Made by a program: the position numbers and the translations under genes. This document shows positions 1 through 4,833 of a stretch of DNA of 32,000 nucleotides, in pieces. Each line of letters opens with the position of its first letter. Within the stretch, counting starts at the first letter, position 1. A model generated the notes under the pieces. It was given only the letters and a program-made list of their open reading frames with translations, did no database searches and had not been told where the DNA came from. This stretch comes from an uncultured archaeon (GTDB lineage Archaea; Asgardarchaeota; Thorarchaeia; Thorarchaeales; Thorarchaeaceae), in the NCBI GenBank assembly GCA_964354495.1, contig CAYHAA010000017.1, positions 30,001 to 62,000 of the forward strand, read 5' to 3'.

Positions 1-993
1 GGCATCCAACTGTTCCTGTGCAGCTACTATGAAGTCTTCTTTAGTAAAACCGAGCTTTGTACCAGTGGAATAAAGAAGGGGAGGATAGTCCTCAGGACTA
101 ACTGGTTGATCTCTCTTCAGTAGATTCTCTAAATCCCCCGGCAAATCCCATGAATCATTACTATACAATGTGATATCTGATTTTGCGCCCGATTGAGTCT
201 GGATATGTATGCTAGAGTAATCAAAGACAGATTTCCCAATCCCTCGGATTGATTTATTGAACAGCGGCATGTTTTCTTCGAAGTTGGGAATAAGGAACGT
301 CGCGTATCCCACATCAGTCATGGCAGTCCTGAGAATACTCTTTGTAAATGGATACCGAGATAGGTCTTGCTCGATTTGTTCCCATTCGACGCCCTTCTGA
401 AGGGTGAAAAAGACCATTACTGATTGAAGGTTAAATGCTGTGTAATCAACCAGACAAGACACTCGAAGATTGTTTCTCTCTCGAAGGCGCTCCAGAGAAC
501 GTGCAACAGTCCGGGGAGCCAAGTTGAGCAGATTGGAAACATCCACAAGAGAGATTAGTGGATCCCTGCATATCGCAGAGAGCACTGTAAGATCATTTTC
601 GTTAACCGGAGCGTCCTCAACCAAGAACACGAAGTTGTACGCAGACCTTATTGCACTCGCGGTGAATAGGTTGAATTTGCTGAGAGTCTTGAGATTCTCA
701 AGCATCTTCATCTTGTACCGCTCGTTTATCGGGACTAGTGTTGGATTAGTTGGAGAAACAGTGTACTCTGGATTCTCCTTCAATACATCAACAGCCTTCA
801 GGGCGGCTTCCATGGTAATCGAACCTGCACAGAGACCAAGGTATATTCTCATTGCATCCAGATAGAATTGCACCGATGGATCATCAACGTGAGGTATCAA
901 ATCATCATATGGCGTTTCTATGGAAATCTGATATGAACTGGAATCGCGATTTGCCTCTTCTGTTCCCGAACGAGTTTTATTCAATGTTTTCAA
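1..993 (-). CDS. Lrp/AsnC-like winged-helix protein with N-terminal helical extension (3' end runs off the window; not in ORF track)
   Basis: Hand translation gives an uninterrupted minus-strand frame from 1005 to position 1: ...DDPSVQFYLDAMRIYLG...NENDLTVLSAICRDPLISLVDVSNLLNLAPRTVARSLERLRERNNLRVSCLVDYTAFNLQSVMVFF... The middle has an AsnC-type HTH pattern. The start is uncertain (TTG 993, TTG 984, TTG 900 or ATG 852). Confidence 0.75.
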   Translation of the reverse strand, partial: MKTLNKTRSGTEEANRDSSSYQISIETPYDDLIPHVDDPSVQFYLDAMRIYLGLCAGSITMEAALKAVDVLKENPEYTVSPTNPTLVPINERYKMKMLENLKTLSKFNLFTASAIRSAYNFVFLVEDAPVNENDLTVLSAICRDPLISLVDVSNLLNLAPRTVARSLERLRERNNLRVSCLVDYTAFNLQSVMVFFTLQKGVEWEQIEQDLSRYPFTKSILRTAMTDVGYATFLIPNFEENMPLFNKSIRGIGKSVFDYSSIHIQTQSGAKSDITLYSNDSWDLPGDLENLLKRDQPVSPEDYPPLLYSTGTKLGFTKEDFIVAAQEQLDA

Positions 994-1005
994 CGCCGGA
1001 TGATT

Positions 1006-2178
1006 TCATCCAGAGGAAGCGCGAGATGCCAGATAGGACACCACACTCTCAAGTCGATTTGATTTCTCGCGTTGGTTGGCTATAAATGTACATATCTCCG
1101 AAGAATTCCCAGCGAGACCTGACATCACTTGTGAGAGAGGAAGCCAGTTGATGTTGCTCGGTACTTCTAAGTCGAGAAGTGTGAGACCAGGACCCGATAG
1201 AACTCGTGCCTTCGGAAAGGTGCTAGCTTGAGCGTGGAGAACGTGAGAGAATGCAGACTCTTTCAGGACATCGTCACGAAAGGAAATCATGATATGTTGA
1301 TCAAGACCAATATTGCCAATCTCAACATATGGCTCTGCAAGATTCTTCCTTGCGCGAGCGATTCTTCTCCGCAGCGTACGATCCGAAGGCGGTTTCAGTC
1401 CTAGTCCAGCATAGACAGATGCCAAGCCGGGAGCATCTATGCTGTAATCGCTTTCAATTGCTGCTGCAACAATGAGGTCGTCGATGATGGGAGCGCTTGG
1501 AGAACTCTGTTCAACGGTCCCGACTACAGGGAGGATATCTACATATCCTCTCGCTGCACCAATCGATGCCTCCAGTCGGAAGCTCTCAGGGAAGTTCCAG
1601 TTGGCTCCATCGAACAACCCCAGATTCAGATGGTGAGATATTTTCGAACAGTCACAGGTGTGTATTGTTAGTGCGTATGGTTTTTTTCTGAATCGGTCGA
1701 TTTGACTCTGGAACCAGCCATACTGACTATCTCGAGGTGACAATGCTTCAAAATAGACGAGAGAGTTGAATGTCGAAGAAATCATCGACTGTAGAGCTGA
1801 AGTGACCAACTTGCTAGACCTCAGCCACCGGTGAAACTTCTCAAGAACATCCGATTCCTCATTGGCGATGGCCCAACCGAAGACCATCTGAAGACCGACT
1901 TTGCCATGATCAAGGTTTCCTCTTATCTTGAGCTCATTCTCATGCTCTAGATTTTGCCAGATTTGATTCACAGCGGAACGTGTCACATGCAAGTCTCTCG
2001 CAAGCCCCGCTTGTCGCAACGATGGATTAATTGCCAGTCTACTGAGTAATCGAAGCTCGCCAGGATTCAATGCACGCATAGTGTTCCACCGAATACCTAG
2101 GTAATATGGCCACTTGTTAAGATATGAACGTGTTGTAAGACCAGTTTGTGATACTGCTGTAATACCTACATAAGACAT
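1006..2178 (-). CDS. Tandem Lrp/AsnC-like wHTH protein (two HTH plus effector-like modules)
   Basis: 390-aa ORF. N-terminal ELRLLSRLAINPSLRQAGLARDLHVTRSAVNQIWQNLE...GNLDHGKVGLQMVF has an AsnC HTH pattern; a second degenerate HTH lies around PSDRTLRRRIARAR...EIGNIGLDQHIMI. The real start may be the Met of MRALNP. Confidence 0.75.
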   Translation of the reverse strand: MSYVGITAVSQTGLTTRSYLNKWPYYLGIRWNTMRALNPGELRLLSRLAINPSLRQAGLARDLHVTRSAVNQIWQNLEHENELKIRGNLDHGKVGLQMVFGWAIANEESDVLEKFHRWLRSSKLVTSALQSMISSTFNSLVYFEALSPRDSQYGWFQSQIDRFRKKPYALTIHTCDCSKISHHLNLGLFDGANWNFPESFRLEASIGAARGYVDILPVVGTVEQSSPSAPIIDDLIVAAAIESDYSIDAPGLASVYAGLGLKPPSDRTLRRRIARARKNLAEPYVEIGNIGLDQHIMISFRDDVLKESAFSHVLHAQASTFPKARVLSGPGLTLLDLEVPSNINWLPLSQVMSGLAGNSSEICTFIANQREKSNRLESVVSYLASRASSG

Positions 2179-2331
2179 TCAATAGCCTCGAAAAACATGT
2201 GCCCCCTAGGGGCGTCTAGAAGCCATTCTAGTAAATTCCTCCGCACACCACTTGCTTATTATGCCAGATTCGGTTGTATGTGTTTGGATTCACACTGCAG
2301 ACTGAGCTCATAGGTTAGGTGATACTGACCG

Positions 2332-2410
2332 AATCAGGTCAGAGCATCGTACCTATCTAGTCAGAGGCAGGCGACTAACTATGATATATAAGGTCAATCA
2401 GGTCGCATCG
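2332..2410 (+). promoter_or_regulatory. TATA box (TATATAA 2385-2391) flanked by an imperfect direct repeat
   Basis: AATCAGGTC-AGA-GCATCG at 2332-2349 and AATCAGGTC-GCATCG at 2396-2410. The first ATG (2420) lies about 30 nt after the TATA box. Confidence 0.5.
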
Positions 2411-2419
2411 GCTAGAGCA

Positions 2420-2470
2420 ATGTCAGTGTGTCCACCATACCAGACTATGCCCAGCAATGAACGGAGGTGA
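2420..2470 (+). CDS. Putative 16-aa micro-ORF A (MSVCPPYQTMPSNERR)
   Basis: First ATG after the TATA box; its last codons form GGAGGTGA. Very short, so it could be chance. Confidence 0.25.
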   Translation: MSVCPPYQTMPSNERR

Positions 2471-2512
2471 AAAGCGATCAGCACAGACCGGATACGAACT
2501 CTCTATGAGAGC

Positions 2513-2614
2513 ATGACCAAGAATCGTGCCGCATTGGAGTTACTATCAATTGGTGTCGTGCGCGGTATCTCAACCGTTGTTCAGCCACCGTGCGAAGATC
2601 CGTGCCCATTCTAG
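2513..2614 (+). CDS. Putative micro-ORF B (MTKNRAALELLSIGVVRGISTVVQPPCEDPCPF; 45 aa if started at ATC 2477)
   Basis: Open frame 2471-2614; strong SD GGAGGTGA at 2463-2470. Confidence 0.3.
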   Translation: MTKNRAALELLSIGVVRGISTVVQPPCEDPCPF

Positions 2615-2626
2615 TGGATACTAGAC

Positions 2627-2797
2627 ATGGTAATCGGAATAAAGCACACATGTGAGCGAACAGCGATTGAAGATTCTCCGTTGCTGGACATTGGTTGGTA
2701 TGAGATTCTTAGCCATTCTCTGCAGTGTGAGAGTTCGAATAGAGAAACAACAGAGACTGGCGATGGGATCCTAGCATGGCTTCCAGAGTCAAAGTAG
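2627..2797 (+). CDS. Putative 56-aa small protein C (MVIGIKHTCERTAIEDSPLLDIGWYEILSHSLQCESSNRETTETGDGILAWLPESK)
   Basis: ATG-to-TAG frame starting 12 nt after ORF B, with protein-like composition. Below the ORF-track length cutoff. Confidence 0.4.
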   Translation: MVIGIKHTCERTAIEDSPLLDIGWYEILSHSLQCESSNRETTETGDGILAWLPESK

Positions 2798-2858
2798 GAG
2801 CCTAACGCCAACCATTCAAAAATCGAAAGAGAACATGAACAAAAGGAGAAAAACCAGA

Positions 2859-2900
2859 ATGAATCAAAAACCAGGCGATGAATCAACAGAACCATGGTAA
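2859..2900 (+). CDS. Putative 13-aa peptide D (MNQKPGDESTEPW)
   Basis: Preceded by AAAAGGAGAAA (2841-2851), identical to the SD-containing 11-mer (2941-2951) before the 83-aa gene. An alternative in-frame ATG is at 2835. Confidence 0.4.
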   Translation: MNQKPGDESTEPW

Positions 2901-2907
2901 ATTCAGG

Positions 2908-2940
2908 AACACGTGCAAACCCGTGTAGAACCGTGTAGAA
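2908..2940. repeat. 10-bp tandem repeat CCGTGTAGAA x2 plus a degenerate third copy
   Basis: 2921-2930 and 2931-2940 are identical; 2911-2920 (ACGTGCAAAC) is a degenerate copy. Confidence 0.8.
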
Positions 2941-2959
2941 AAAAGGAGAAAGAAGACAA

Positions 2960-3211
2960 ATGATAACTGAAAGAATTGAGCCAATACTCGGAAACATCAC
3001 GACTGCCGAAACAGGCCGCGAAGTGGATCCGTTTACTGACCCAGAGGTTGTTAGATTGACTGCAATCAATCTTGAACTTGCAGTTAGAAACCTCATGACA
3101 GCACACGCTCCTCCAGAGTGCCTAGTGATCACAGCTGACATATGCACGCACAGACTCATGGCTATTCCCACAGCAGATGGCGAGGTCAAGGTGCTTGTGT
3201 TTGAACTGTGA
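2960..3211 (+). CDS. Small hypothetical protein (83 aa)
   Basis: AAGGAG SD, ATG start, globular alpha/beta-like composition (DPFTDPEVV...PPECLVITADICTH). I recognise no domain. Confidence 0.85.
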   Translation: MITERIEPILGNITTAETGREVDPFTDPEVVRLTAINLELAVRNLMTAHAPPECLVITADICTHRLMAIPTADGEVKVLVFEL

Positions 3212-3240
3212 ACCGCCGGTAGTCAAGAAAGAGAGTAACT

Positions 3241-3274
3241 TCACATTCGAGAGATTGGGTCTCTCGAAGAGTGA
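3241..3274. terminator. Stem-loop downstream of the 83-aa gene
   Basis: TTCGAGAGA (3246-3254) pairs perfectly with TCTCTCGAA (3260-3268) around a 5-nt loop, extended by TCAC/GTGA. Confidence 0.5.
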
Positions 3275-3321
3275 GAATAAGATGAGATAAGGAGTCTAAA
3301 TAGCTTCGAACAGACATCTAG

Positions 3322-4833
3322 TTGCTCAAGTACCAAGTCAAGAGAGGACTTGGAGAAGCTTGGCTGAGATTGTTGTTCGGAGATAGACTAAAAATGAAAG
3401 TGGTCCGGAAGCATGAGGCGTGGAGTGACAACAGCGTGGACAGCAATCCATTGGATGATAAGGCACGCTTACCAGCCCATGACGAAGATACGGACCATTT
3501 GGGTGTTCAAGAGGGGCATGGACAACAGGATAATCTTAGAGCCTCTCTGAAAGCTGTTTTTTCATGGAAGAACTACAGAGTATATCTGCTTACGGCATGG
3601 ATATTCAATGCCTTTGAATATCTGGGGAGCTTCTTCAATCTGTATCTCTGGAGCTTGAATCTAGGTCTACTATTGATTGGCGCGATTGGCACGATTACTT
3701 ATGCTATATCAACCATTGCAAGGTTCTTTGGTGGATATGTAGGAGATACTTCCAACCGTAAGACCCTAGCAGTTATTTCGATGCTCCTAATGGCAACCTA
3801 TTATCTGATGATTGGGATATTTAGAGAGCCCATCCTGATTTTCGTTGCTCTTGCAATTTACTCTTCTATTGAGATTACCAAGGGCGGCTCAACGGCATAC
3901 ATAATGGACAATATACCTCGAGAACATAGTGGATTTGCTCTATCGATGTTTACTACGGGCAAGACGTTGTCGATTATCACACTTGCTGTCTTTGGTTTGC
4001 TGTATCCAATTATGGAGTTCGCGGCTTTCCGGCAACTTCACTTGGCGGGTGGTATCCTACTGCTGTTTTCTACCGCGCTGAGAGCAGTCTACTTGAAGAG
4101 CAGTCCTCAAAAGAAGAGAGAGGCCGGAACCAGACTATGGAGAACCTTCATCCAAGACAACAGGCGAGCACTGGGGATATTGCTATCTGTGATTCCAGGA
4201 ATGATTGTAGTGTGCATCTTCGATAGCATAAGTGATTCATTCTTCAAGCTGGGTGCTCTAATCTATCTGTATGAGGACCTGTATATCGATATTCCATCAA
4301 TGGTAATCATGCTAATTGCCACGCTTCTGATACAGGTTCCACTCCTACTGAAAGTAGGAAGACTCACCGATAGAAAAGGAGTGAAATCTACAGCACTCAT
4401 GGTTTATGCAATCATGCCAATATCTGCGGCTCTATTGATTCTAGCTTACTGGATTCCGGATTGGGTACCCCTGTCATTCTCAACTGCTGCAAACACACTT
4501 ATTCCTGGGCTTGGTGTGATCTTCAAGACGTCATTTCTTGCAGTCGTTCTCAAATATGTGAATGATACATTGTGGTACACCATTGTTCTGGTGCTCATTC
4601 GACAGAGGCTCCCAAGTCATGATACATCAAAAATCCTCAGTCTATTCTGGATTGTTGTATGGTTGTCCTCCTCATTAGGTCCTCTAGTGGGAGGAATAAT
4701 CTCTGAAGCAATAGGCATCTTGTATCTCTTTGTCGCTGTGTTCATTCTAAACATAATCATTCTTGCAGCAATAGCTCGTTATGACTTGACTGTAAAAGGG
4801 CAGACAGCCCAAGAAGTGCAGATAGGCGAATAG
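3322..4833 (+). CDS. MFS transporter
   Basis: About 12 hydrophobic segments; MFS motif A GYVGDTSNRK and second-half GRLTDRKGVK. The true start is probably downstream (3394 or TTG 3499). Confidence 0.9.
   Translation: MLKYQVKRGLGEAWLRLLFGDRLKMKVVRKHEAWSDNSVDSNPLDDKARLPAHDEDTDHLGVQEGHGQQDNLRASLKAVFSWKNYRVYLLTAWIFNAFEYLGSFFNLYLWSLNLGLLLIGAIGTITYAISTIARFFGGYVGDTSNRKTLAVISMLLMATYYLMIGIFREPILIFVALAIYSSIEITKGGSTAYIMDNIPREHSGFALSMFTTGKTLSIITLAVFGLLYPIMEFAAFRQLHLAGGILLLFSTALRAVYLKSSPQKKREAGTRLWRTFIQDNRRALGILLSVIPGMIVVCIFDSISDSFFKLGALIYLYEDLYIDIPSMVIMLIATLLIQVPLLLKVGRLTDRKGVKSTALMVYAIMPISAALLILAYWIPDWVPLSFSTAANTLIPGLGVIFKTSFLAVVLKYVNDTLWYTIVLVLIRQRLPSHDTSKILSLFWIVVWLSSSLGPLVGGIISEAIGILYLFVAVFILNIIILAAIARYDLTVKGQTAQEVQIGE

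Follow-up and report, generated by a model that had tools for sequence, protein, structure and literature searches.

We analysed a window of 32,000 nt, i.e., the whole stretch of DNA at hand, with a focus on the interval between two divergent regulator genes and a transporter gene. As judged from its conservation among relatives, this interval is a folded mRNA that codes for a protein p45, a 13-residue peptide and a protein p83, and that is conserved in one Asgard archaeal family. The features of the locus are as follows (position in the window, strand, description).

1..993, - strand: regulator 1, a wHTH protein paralogous to regulator 2; 331 aa are visible since the ORF runs past the window edge
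1006..2178, - strand: regulator 2, 390 aa, a predicted tandem Lrp/AsnC-like protein of layout (wHTH + RAM)x2
2256..2263, + strand: conserved TATA-like box TTATTATG; the form TTATTAT[G/A] is shared by nearly all g1 loci and by several other genera
2290..2301, + strand: 5' arm TCACACTGCAGA of helix P1, pairs with 2719-2730
2435..2442, + strand: 5' arm of helix P2, pairs with 2696-2703
2451..2458, + strand: 5' arm CCAGCAAT of helix P3, a few nt 5' of the p45 Shine-Dalgarno (SD) sequence, pairs with 2680-2687
2463..2470, + strand: p45 SD GGAGGTGA; GGAGGTG is found 5' of codon 1 in 45/47 loci
2477..2614, + strand: p45, 45 codons with ATC at codon 1 and a TAG stop, previously overlooked
2680..2730, + strand: 3' arms of P3 (2680-2687), P2 (2696-2703) and P1 (2719-2730), from RNAalifold and the MFE fold
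2859..2900, + strand: micro-ORF MNQKPGDESTEPW, 13 codons plus TAA, with SD GGAG at 2845-2848
2909..2936, + strand: small stem-loop past the micro-ORF and ahead of the p83 SD, weak here, with a local CCGTGTAGAA x2 duplication
2960..3211, + strand: p83, 83 aa, an undescribed family, with SD GGAG at 2945-2948
3240..3275, + strand: strong stem-loop between p83 and the MFS transporter gene
3394..4833, + strand: MFS transporter (Pfam MFS_1, E 6.5e-16), the last conserved gene of the unit

According to the original prediction, the gap is tiled without overlaps by a cascade of five small genes. The ORFs in question do exist, i.e., 16 aa at 2420-2470 (ORF1), 33 aa (ATG 2513) or 45 aa (ATC 2477) up to 2614 (ORF2), 56 aa at 2627-2797 (ORF3), 21 or 13 aa (2835 or 2859) up to 2900, and 83 aa at 2960-3211. 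The same holds for three SD-like sites (ORF2 GGAGGTGA at 2463-2470, 13-aa ORF GGAG at 2845-2848, p83 GGAG at 2945-2948) and for the strong terminal hairpin, located at 3240-3275. The tiling, however, had been picked from ten overlapping ATG-ORFs of the + strand. Its best version covers 546 nt compared to 376 +/- 102 nt in shuffled sequences, 4.4% of which reach 546 nt, and at least five ORFs are observed in 26% of the shuffles.

Of the four small ORFs of the cascade, ORF2 (p45) and the 13-codon ORF are genes, while ORF1 and ORF3 are not conserved. The ATG of ORF1 (+ strand) is missing in the other 14 aligned genus sequences, which show lengths that are not multiples of 3, stops, and variable columns spread over the codon positions as 11/10/10. 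For ORF3 (+ strand), the ATG is absent from nearly all relatives, stops and frame shifts occur, the variable columns are distributed 41/41/42, and the 3' arms of all three helices (P3, P2, P1) fall within the ORF. Both were rejected as genes, and both sit on arms of the nested helices that enclose p45. The original prediction named a lack of conservation of the interval as its refutation, and this is not what the relatives show: the interval itself and two of its frames are retained. For ORF1 and ORF3, the alternative named there applies, as they are conserved only as RNA structure with broken frames. On the basis of these alignments, the small genes in the gap are three (p45, micro-ORF and p83) and not five. 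Opposite to them, an antisense ORF at 2611-3189 (192 aa) was also rejected as a gene, its ends varying from 19 to 252 codons among loci and its frame being broken inside p83 in 13 loci; that it reads through p83 results from the near-absence there of Tyr, His and Gln codons in the context required. The same applies to the minus-strand ORF 2478-2651, for which the wobble sites of p45 are the second codon positions and which contains stops in most loci.

p45 was found in 71/86 genomes of the family (14/16 genera) with an alignment spanning all 45 codons. Its frame is the sole one that stays open, the other five showing about 2-3 stops each. Within the genus, the variable columns by codon position are 3/6/30 (41 codons from 2492). 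Across the family, codons 14-45 show an entropy of 0.54/0.30/1.38 by codon position and codons 2-5 one of 0.73/0.66/1.33, i.e., the triplet signal extends back to codon 2. By this pattern of variation, p45 is coding.

Codon 1 of p45 is ATT, ATA or ATC in 44/47 loci, and its spacing from GGAGG is 8 nt in 39 loci and 9 nt in 5 loci. In 7 loci, an in-frame stop excludes every upstream canonical start. Furthermore, the stretch from the SD to codon 1 has gained or lost 1 nt in three separate lineages, and neither Met6 nor Met13 is universal. Taken from these comparisons, p45 apparently starts at a near-cognate AUU, AUC or AUA codon behind a perfect SD. An AUG-started product of 33-40 aa is conceivable, since every genome keeps at least one of Met6 and Met13. 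We found no case of established AUH initiation in an archaeon in the literature, and elsewhere in this genome AUH starts after GGAGGTG have too few sites for a general trend. For Saccharolobus, aIF1 was shown to discriminate against AUU (PMC4705826).

In terms of hydropathy (Kyte-Doolittle), the 19-residue maximum mean of p45 is 1.38 with an Arg within the stretch, and the tail is acidic and proline-rich. Searching 1.84 billion proteins with the p45 profile returned 13 small proteins (39-82 aa), mostly from its own family and with over-long N-termini, such that no informative relative emerged from this set. The same search also matched four long proteins on short repeated stretches, which we take as spurious. 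ESM Atlas feature searches with p45 and p83 gave no usable match.

The micro-ORF is present together with its SD in 47/47 loci and encodes 11-15 aa. Pro accounts for 30% of its product and Asp plus Glu for 22%. The N-terminus is variable and the C-terminus, beside the stop, is fixed; a signal peptide is absent. The last residue is W (37), F (12) or Y (2). Two copies of the micro-ORF occur in four loci, and identical tandem copies are found in two genera. Where the codons of the terminal Glu-Pro change at the third position, the amino acids stay the same. A [D/E]-P-x-P-[W/F/Y] tail is common to the micro-peptide and p45, and both tails co-vary within genomes (2.97 vs. 2.65 identical among the last six residues, median permutation p-value 0.008). 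This comparison took one locus per genus; the difference amounts to no more than 0.3 of 6 residues, and genomes of relatives do not count as independent. The common residues are written in different synonymous codons, so that the likeness of the tails is not accounted for by gene conversion.

The distance from the micro-ORF to the downstream p83 is 32-63 nt, with a hairpin in between in most loci. This GC stem-loop is observed in most but not all genera (several are without it), and its stem sequences differ. It never includes the p83 SD, so that no attenuator is evident. Around the micro-ORF, we found no alternative RNA pairing, and no Rho site is evident.

p83 was detected in 74/85 family genomes with one match per genome and in 0/315 genomes of other families in the phylum. 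Its relatives, mostly from Thorarchaeota, are annotated only as 'hypothetical protein'. In the AF2 model (pLDDT 82), the N-terminus is disordered, and the ordered part consists of a single helix and three strands. This predicted helix on a three-stranded antiparallel sheet is most similar, if only weakly, to Roadblock/LC7/LAMTOR and PAS-like domains, with a best Foldseek E of 0.09-0.4 (TM 0.46) and VIA-align Z values of 3.6-4.9 (Roadblock, LAMTOR) and 5.8 (PAS domain), where Z up to 5.8 lies within the range of chance arrangements. Compared to the Roadblock fold (alpha-beta-beta-alpha-beta-beta-beta), the p83 model is without the N-terminal helix and strands and would correspond to the second half only. 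It does not match the Pfam model PF03259 (Robl_LC7), for which 11 other genes of the genome score above the cut-off, and hhalign against the genome's own ten Roadblock paralogues yields a probability of 0.3-0.4%. We also considered a split Roadblock protein with p45 as the missing N-terminal half of p83. This was dropped as unsupported, with p45, p83 and their concatenate all showing less than 1% hhalign probability against these paralogues.

On the RNA level, the covariation of paired positions indicates that nested long-range helices join the 5' leader to a segment past the first cistron and thereby enclose the SD and p45 in a closed loop. P1 consists of 12 bp, in which RNAalifold on 17 genus sequences shows three U.G intermediates and a single compensatory change, CG-to-UA; the helix is recovered in the MFE fold of 2286-2740. 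P2 consists of 7 bp and shows AU-to-CG on both sides in 4 sequences (RNAalifold). P1 and P2 are clear in this genus only, while P3 is family-wide. For other genera, P1-type pairing of the extreme 5' end was no different from shuffles. P3 covaries across genera, whose arm sequences differ; its own-locus duplexes have a mean energy of -14.6 kcal/mol compared to -9.4 for cross-locus combinations, and the observed value was reached in 0/20000 permutations. G.U pairs are compatible with the + strand only. Sequestration of the SD by an extension of P3, as seen in the MFE fold of this genome, was dropped since the pairing partner is not conserved. A bulge-helix-bulge or circularisation reading was also discarded: the motif is absent from the inspected helices and no joints are seen in the RNA contigs, the latter being a weak argument since contigs hide rare forms. 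The Rfam 15 covariance models gave 0 matches at gathering score across the whole window and chance-level rows only at E up to 10 within 2100-3400, and no tRNA was found.

The TTATTAT[G/A] box is located 165-222 nt 5' of p45 codon 1, and TTGG follows about 21 nt 3' of the box. We infer that transcription starts at about 2286, in TTTGGATTC. The box at 2256-2263 is followed by a leader of about 190 nt. Originally, a different TATA box was proposed (ATATATAA at 2381 or about 2385), followed by a leaderless ORF1 whose RR-stop forms the next SD. This box is found in this genome only, RNA contigs from three studies begin upstream of it, and the layout as a whole is not conserved; the stop of ORF1 falls within the SD only in the two g1 genomes that have an extra A. 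The metatranscriptome contigs of these three studies start at about 2303-2311, where it should be kept in mind that they are assembled from close relatives, are strandless, and do not end at true transcript ends. Contigs of four RNA libraries span 2303-3587 and leave the regulator genes uncovered; 1900-2265 is covered by none of the RNA contigs. One contig (2601-3587) reads through the stem-loop at 3240-3275. A GC-rich hairpin 30-45 nt past the p83 stop is found in nearly all loci with differing stem sequences.

The gene order, i.e., regulators facing away from p45, micro-ORF, p83 and MFS transporter, is kept in 13/13 genera with loci examined. The predicted neighbourhood of divergent regulators and a small-protein operon thus holds in each of them, and the MFS transporter follows 3' of p83 in nearly all loci examined. 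By these comparisons, the interval forms the leading part of a single transcription unit, which is conserved, expressed and confined to one Thorarchaeota family. A RiPP reading was rejected, as the conserved unit is without a modifying enzyme.

Both divergent wHTH genes are present as originally described and are paralogous. Regulator 1 matches the Pfam models HTH_24 (E 1.7e-6) and HTH_AsnC-type (E 0.0017), and regulator 2 matches MarR (E 0.001), where all matches except HTH_24 are under the curated cut-offs. Regulator 1 shows cross-matches with regulator 2, and its position is conserved in other genera. The true start of regulator 2 is probably Met34 at 2079, given that its homologues begin near there. 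Its AF2 model (357 aa, pLDDT 88, pTM 0.87) contains two three-helix HTH domains, each followed by beta-alpha-beta-beta-alpha-beta. Using Foldseek, the full length matches NirDL (E 1e-7), and half-length matches include PH0061, NMB0573, Rv3291c, AsnC, Lrp and others at probability 1.00. The Pfam AsnC_trans_reg (RAM) model matches neither regulator at E up to 0.1, such that Lrp/AsnC (FFRP) membership follows from the predicted fold and not from the sequence. From the models, the regulators are predicted to be Lrp/AsnC-like, with confidence for the 390-aa one, and they may bind DNA. Their conserved divergent synteny suggests that they control or sense the operon. No RRNPP/Rgg-SHP-type receptor was found: the regulators are of Lrp/RAM type and without TPR, though a divergent small peptide gene is present.

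Leaving the mechanism aside, we consider the anatomy of the locus highly probable. When a mechanism is added to this anatomy, our reading becomes tentative, though quite possible, namely that of an operon under regulation, in which p45 is translated weakly and tunably and two products compete for one partner. Here, transcription would be set by the two divergent double Lrp/AsnC-like proteins. Owing to its near-cognate start, p45 would be synthesised slowly, at a level governed by start-codon fidelity (aIF1 stringency). The micro-peptide would be freely made and act in trans: by imitating the tail of p45 alone, it would compete with p45 for one lineage-specific partner, candidates for which are p83, the RAM domains of the regulators, and the transporter. 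The hairpins and the 5'-3' clamp may stabilise or partition the polycistronic RNA. A more specific form we regard as quite unlikely: p45 synthesis, from a near-cognate start behind a perfect SD in the mRNA loop that the long-range helices close, would report the aIF1 state, and the 13-residue tail mimic would compete for a lineage-specific receptor such as p83 or the regulators' RAM domains.

The make-up of the micro-peptide is that of known ribosome-destabilising leader peptides, so that a role in cis is as natural as one in trans. The main rival thus treats the micro-ORF as a cis-acting MgtL-like leader on which ribosomes pause or fall off and thereby set the output of p83 and the transporter. 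Triggers could be Mg2+, aIF5A activity or proline supply; the peptide itself would be functionless and the p45 tail a second pause site. Such a leader agrees with the length (11-15 aa) and composition (Pro 30%, Asp plus Glu 22%) of the micro-peptide, with its variable N-terminus and its fixed C-terminus at the stop, and with its location 32-63 nt before p83, mostly with an intervening hairpin. The EPDP motif of MgtL in fact destabilises ribosomes and controls a downstream transporter gene (PMC11282234, PMC12856214), and a separate note by the earlier reader had proposed a TnaC-like leader. On the other hand, the SD of p83 is in no case sequestered by the hairpin, which several genera do not have, and no alternative pairing was found. 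Identical tandem micro-ORFs in two genera suit a dosage effect better, and the lineage-specific co-variation of the amino-acid tail with p45 is hard to ascribe to a conserved ribosome. Overall, we rate the cis-acting leader as somewhat unlikely.

The remaining alternatives are far less probable. It is very unlikely that the two regulators are NirDL/AhbAB-like decarboxylases on an Lrp/AsnC fold and the locus is metabolic. The siroheme decarboxylase NirDL is the best full-length structural match (E 1e-7, TM 0.5-0.58), but its identity is 8-9% only and any tandem of two Lrp-like units would give this match; in addition, both predicted recognition helices keep motifs of DNA-binding HTHs (TRSAVNQ-W, ERTLRRRL) and Pfam finds HTH families only. 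We give even less credit to a type-I-toxin or hok-like unit at 2286-2735, i.e., a toxic peptide that is silenced by mRNA end pairing until the RNA is processed. While a small, weakly started ORF indeed lies within the long-range pairing of 5' end and 3' segment, a convincing membrane helix is missing from p45 (19-residue maximum 1.38) and its tail is acidic and proline-rich. Its SD is not conservedly sequestered, and it is single-copy, at a fixed position in all 13 genera with loci examined and in an operon with p83 and the transporter. Finally, the model of the original prediction, with a TATA box at about 2385, a leaderless 16-aa ORF and a five-ORF cascade in which stops create the next ribosome-binding sites, is almost certainly wrong. 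Its ORFs and ATATATAA exist in this genome, and the ORF1 stop lies within GGAGGTGA here; yet ORF1 and ORF3 are not conserved within the genus, nor is the TATA box, the RNA contigs start upstream, and the tiling barely beats chance.

The regulated operon with two competing products remains our preferred reading. Irrespective of its mechanism, the locus enlarges the core genes of an Asgard family by p45 and the micro-ORF, both unannotated or mis-annotated, and by p83, an orphan family. It further illustrates that a conserved gap tiled by small ORFs can hold a mix of real micro-genes and arms of RNA structures. As a comparative case for near-cognate initiation in archaea, the conserved AUH where p45 should start would be without precedent and, if true, it would be the first conserved non-AUG/GUG/UUG start in an archaeon. 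Among prokaryotes, archaea have the initiation machinery that best models the eukaryotic one. If the proposed competition is true as well, RAM domains that read peptide C-termini instead of free amino acids would represent a new peptide-sensing mode of the Lrp family. A covarying long-range mRNA clamp, a micro-peptide with a tail that co-evolves with that of its neighbour and fused double Lrp regulators are united in one locus, and each of them is testable in vitro without culture.

Parts of this architecture resemble known systems. In Corynebacterium Lrp/brnFE, an Lrp/AsnC-family regulator is divergent from an exporter operon, and here, too, regulators of Lrp/AsnC fold are divergent from an operon that ends in a transporter. 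Differing from Lrp/brnFE, the regulators here are a pair of paralogues, both of them fusions of two Lrp units in tandem, and three small proteins plus a structured leader of about 190 nt are placed between promoter and transporter. Bacterial infC has an AUU start codon and is subject to IF3 autoregulation. The near-cognate AUH start of p45 would likewise be under selection and sensitive to initiation fidelity, where the archaeal discriminator would be aIF1 (PMC4705826). In contrast to the AUU of infC, the p45 codon is any of AUU, AUC and AUA behind a perfect 8-nt SD, with its usage presumed; p45 is not an initiation factor, so no infC-like autoregulatory loop is evident.

The EPDP motif in MgtL of mgtA (Salmonella, E. 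coli) destabilises ribosomes early in the nascent chain (PMC11282234, PMC12856214), and ribosome-destabilising motifs are defined as mixtures of Pro with acidic residues that lie among the first 30 residues (PMC11282234). Like MgtL, the micro-ORF is very short, SD-led, rich in Pro and acidic residues, and upstream of a transporter-containing unit. However, its motif is C-terminal by the stop, while that of MgtL is at residues 2-5, the system is archaeal, and the tail recurs on a separate conserved protein (p45) with which it co-varies. Finally, the nested helices join the extreme 5' end to a segment past a short cistron as is the case for hok-type mRNAs and archaeal rRNA processing stems. Compared to hok-type mRNAs, the 3' arms are here inside a longer polycistronic RNA and not at its end, and p45 is without toxin features.

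The locus carries a previously undescribed operon, expressed and specific to one family, whose mode of action we infer. Its unusual features are a conserved AUH codon (AUU, AUC or AUA) at the putative start of p45, a 45-codon gene (2477-2614, plus strand), a covarying mRNA clamp, and a micro-peptide that has a co-evolving tail in common with p45. The original prediction had seen a cascade of five small ORFs, four of them tiling the gap that follows the divergent 390-aa regulator 2 gene (1006-2178, minus strand), the fifth being p83 (83 aa, 2960-3211), and had read it as a small-protein operon controlled or sensed by a regulator pair. Of this, the observation is confirmed in part, and the interpretation has partial support.

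The listed ORFs do exist, as do three SD-like (Shine-Dalgarno) sites, and positions 3240-3275 form a strong hairpin. The tiling itself is weak evidence. Ten ATG-ORFs of 13 aa or longer overlap on the plus strand of the gap, and the best non-overlapping set covers 546 nt compared to 376 +/- 102 nt in composition-matched shuffles, a value reached by 4.4% of the shuffles. Rfam and tRNA scans of the window gave no match. The small ORFs were told apart on a 15-sequence alignment of the interval and codon-position statistics for each ORF. Frames are conserved for the second ORF (p45) and for an inner 13-codon form of the fourth (the micro-ORF, 2859-2900, plus strand), but not for ORF1 and ORF3. That is, p45 shows no indels, a conserved stop and 2/6/24 variable columns at codon positions 1/2/3, and the micro-ORF retains an SD, an ATG and a conserved ...E-P-W/F-stop, with an indel of 3 nt. 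The 21-aa form of the fourth ORF is not kept among the aligned sequences. ORF1 (16 aa) and ORF3 (56 aa) were rejected as genes, both with lost ATGs, gained stops, length changes that are not multiples of three and variation without periodicity (11/10/10 and 41/41/42, respectively).

The latter two stretches are conserved without frame because they overlie the arms of RNA helices: P2 and P3 have their 5' arms in ORF1, and all three helices have their 3' arms in ORF3. RNAalifold on 17 sequences of the genus yields these nested, long-range helices:

2290-2301 with 2719-2730, plus strand, helix P1
2435-2442 with 2696-2703, plus strand, helix P2
2451-2458 with 2680-2687, plus strand, helix P3

Compensation is seen in P1 (CG-to-UA double change, with U.G intermediates present) and in P2 (AU-to-CG double change), and the abundant G.U pairs of P1-P3 are compatible with the plus strand only. 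P3 is found family-wide. In it, the 16 nt directly 5' of the p45 SD pair with a stretch 30-110 nt past the p45 stop. Its arm sequences are quite different from genus to genus. Arms from the same locus form duplexes of on average -14.6 kcal/mol compared to -9.4 for mismatched loci (0/20000 permutations as strong). Outside the genus, a counterpart of P1 at the extreme 5' end could not be demonstrated, and no conserved sequestration of the p45 SD by RNA pairing was found.

A TTATTAT[G/A] box (2256-2263), conserved in the genus and several others, lies 165-222 nt before p45 codon 1 and is followed after about 21 nt by TTGG, so that transcription would begin near 2286, at the base of P1. The TATA box originally proposed near 2385 turned out to be private to this genome. 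Expression was assessed on contigs assembled from four RNA libraries (wetland, sediment, soil), 90-97% identical to the window. They together cover 2303-3587, with leftmost starts at 2303, 2307 and 2311 in three studies; no library has contigs over 1900-2265, which includes the regulator gene. A single contig (2601-3587) starts at the 3' end of p45 and extends into the transporter. These contigs, which carry neither strand nor true ends, are compatible with both the proposed promoter and co-transcription. The near clade also conserves a block just 5' of the box, at 2215-2250 (TCTAG, 7 nt, ATTCTAGTAAAT, ... CCGCACACCAC). With its repeated TCTAG, this block is a candidate operator of the divergent regulators.

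For regulator 2, the AF2 model (pLDDT 88, pTM 0.87) has two consecutive units of wHTH plus beta-alpha-beta-beta-alpha-beta, matching NirDL over the full length and many Lrp/AsnC proteins on each half, and HTH-like motifs are retained in both recognition helices. The predicted tandem Lrp/AsnC-like, double-wHTH architecture is thus supported at the fold level. The first 33 codons (2079-2178) are not conserved, and homologues from other genera begin at the residue corresponding to Met34. Translation probably starts at 2079, giving an intergenic region of about 400 nt.

The arrangement of regulator, 746-790 nt gap and p83 is retained in about 20 genomes of the genus, with 69-95% DNA identity in the gap although regulator protein identity drops to 52-57%. 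Six-frame searches extend the unit family-wide: p45 is present in 71/86 genomes (14/16 genera) and p83 in 74/85, with a single match in each. None of 315 genomes from other families of the phylum had a p83 match. Gene order (regulators 1 and 2, divergent from p45, p83 and an MFS transporter) holds in 13/13 genera with the locus examined. Within 2179-2959, contigs of several MAGs of the genus terminate (G009, G012, G020, G021, G022), two ends overlapping by about 125 nt in G012. The variable stretches, after p45 and in the micro-ORF, may thus differ between strains (micro-diversity) or have caused assembly problems.

Every database copy of p83 is annotated as 'hypothetical protein' and lacks Pfam domains; most come from Candidatus Thorarchaeota. 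In the AF2 model of p83 (pLDDT 82), a disordered N-terminus is followed by a single helix and a sheet of three strands, for which the best structural matches, Roadblock/LAMTOR/MglB and PAS-like domains, score at chance level (Foldseek E >=0.09, Z <=5.8, TM about 0.5). Profile comparison of p83 with the Roadblock genes of this genome showed no similarity. Of the 12 Roadblock/LC7 matches in the genome, 11 genes pass the Pfam cut-off, including a cluster of three on contig C3 (4073-6669). The conserved N-terminal segment GREVDPFTDPE of p83 (residues 20-29, 3020-3045) holds Asp-Pro-aromatic and Asp-Pro-Glu elements resembling the p45 and micro-peptide tails. A hairpin 3' of p83 occurs in nearly all loci with varying stem sequence. 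Another hairpin between micro-ORF and p83 is common, not universal, and never contained the p83 SD in the loci inspected; an exact tandem duplication in this genome only (CCGTGTAGAA x2, 2921-2940) weakens it here. A 192-aa antisense ORF (2611-3189, minus strand) was rejected as a gene given its variable ends. It is open across p83 in many genera because p83 is nearly without Tyr, His and Gln codons, and since both frames have common wobble positions, codon periodicity alone cannot separate the strands.

The p45 frame is conserved family-wide 12 codons upstream of ATG 2513, back to codon 1 at 2477, which is ATT, ATA or ATC in 26, 10 and 8 loci (44/47), with the GGAGG of the invariant GGAGGTGA located 8 nt upstream in 39 loci and 9 nt upstream in 5. 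Codon-position entropies of codons 2-5 (0.73/0.66/1.33) and 6-12 (0.64/0.36/1.18) resemble those of codons 14-45 (0.54/0.30/1.38), with an unconstrained value of about 1.8 over 30 nt 3' of the stop; the other five frames have 2-3 stops each in most loci. The start codons known for Archaea are AUG, GUG and UUG. A GTG inside the SD is often in frame, and gene callers start there, giving 48-aa database entries. It is put out of frame in three separate lineages by 1-nt indels that fall between the SD and codon 1, and 7 loci have an in-frame TGA/TAA between it and codon 1 or immediately before codon 1. Alternatively, p45 may start at an AUG at codon 6 or 13; Met6 is missing in this genome's clade and several genera, and Met13 is replaced by Leu in one genus. 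The simplest reading of the alignments is that p45 would initiate at the near-cognate AUH codon placed by the perfect SD. In vitro, Saccharolobus aIF1 rejects AUU (PMC4705826).

Neither relatives beyond its own family nor a convincing membrane helix were found for p45, the C-terminus of which is nearly invariant (...VVQPPCEDPxPF). The micro-ORF is present in 47/47 loci with GGAGG/GGAGAG 8-11 nt upstream. It encodes 11-15 aa with 30% Pro, 11% Asp, 11% Glu and a mean net charge of -2, the final residue being W in 37 peptides, F in 12 and Y in 2; 36/51 peptides end in [D/E]-P-x-P-aromatic or P-[D/E/Q]-P-aromatic, the tail also seen in p45. Four loci of two genera (L064, L067 and L071 of g23, L080 of g15) carry tandem copies of micro-ORF and SD, spaced by about 180 or about 94 nt, with peptides identical or one residue apart. 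Using one locus per genus, the last six residues of p45 and micro-peptide share 2.97 identities within compared to 2.65 between genomes (median p 0.008). The common residues are often encoded by different synonymous codons, so gene conversion is not the cause. Lineage-specific co-variation of this kind is unlikely to be driven by the conserved ribosome, which tilts the comparison towards a common protein partner of both tails. A cis role of the micro-ORF as a ribosome-destabilising leader would stay a strong rival by analogy, because the composition of the micro-peptide matches that of MgtL-type leaders (PMC11282234, PMC12856214).
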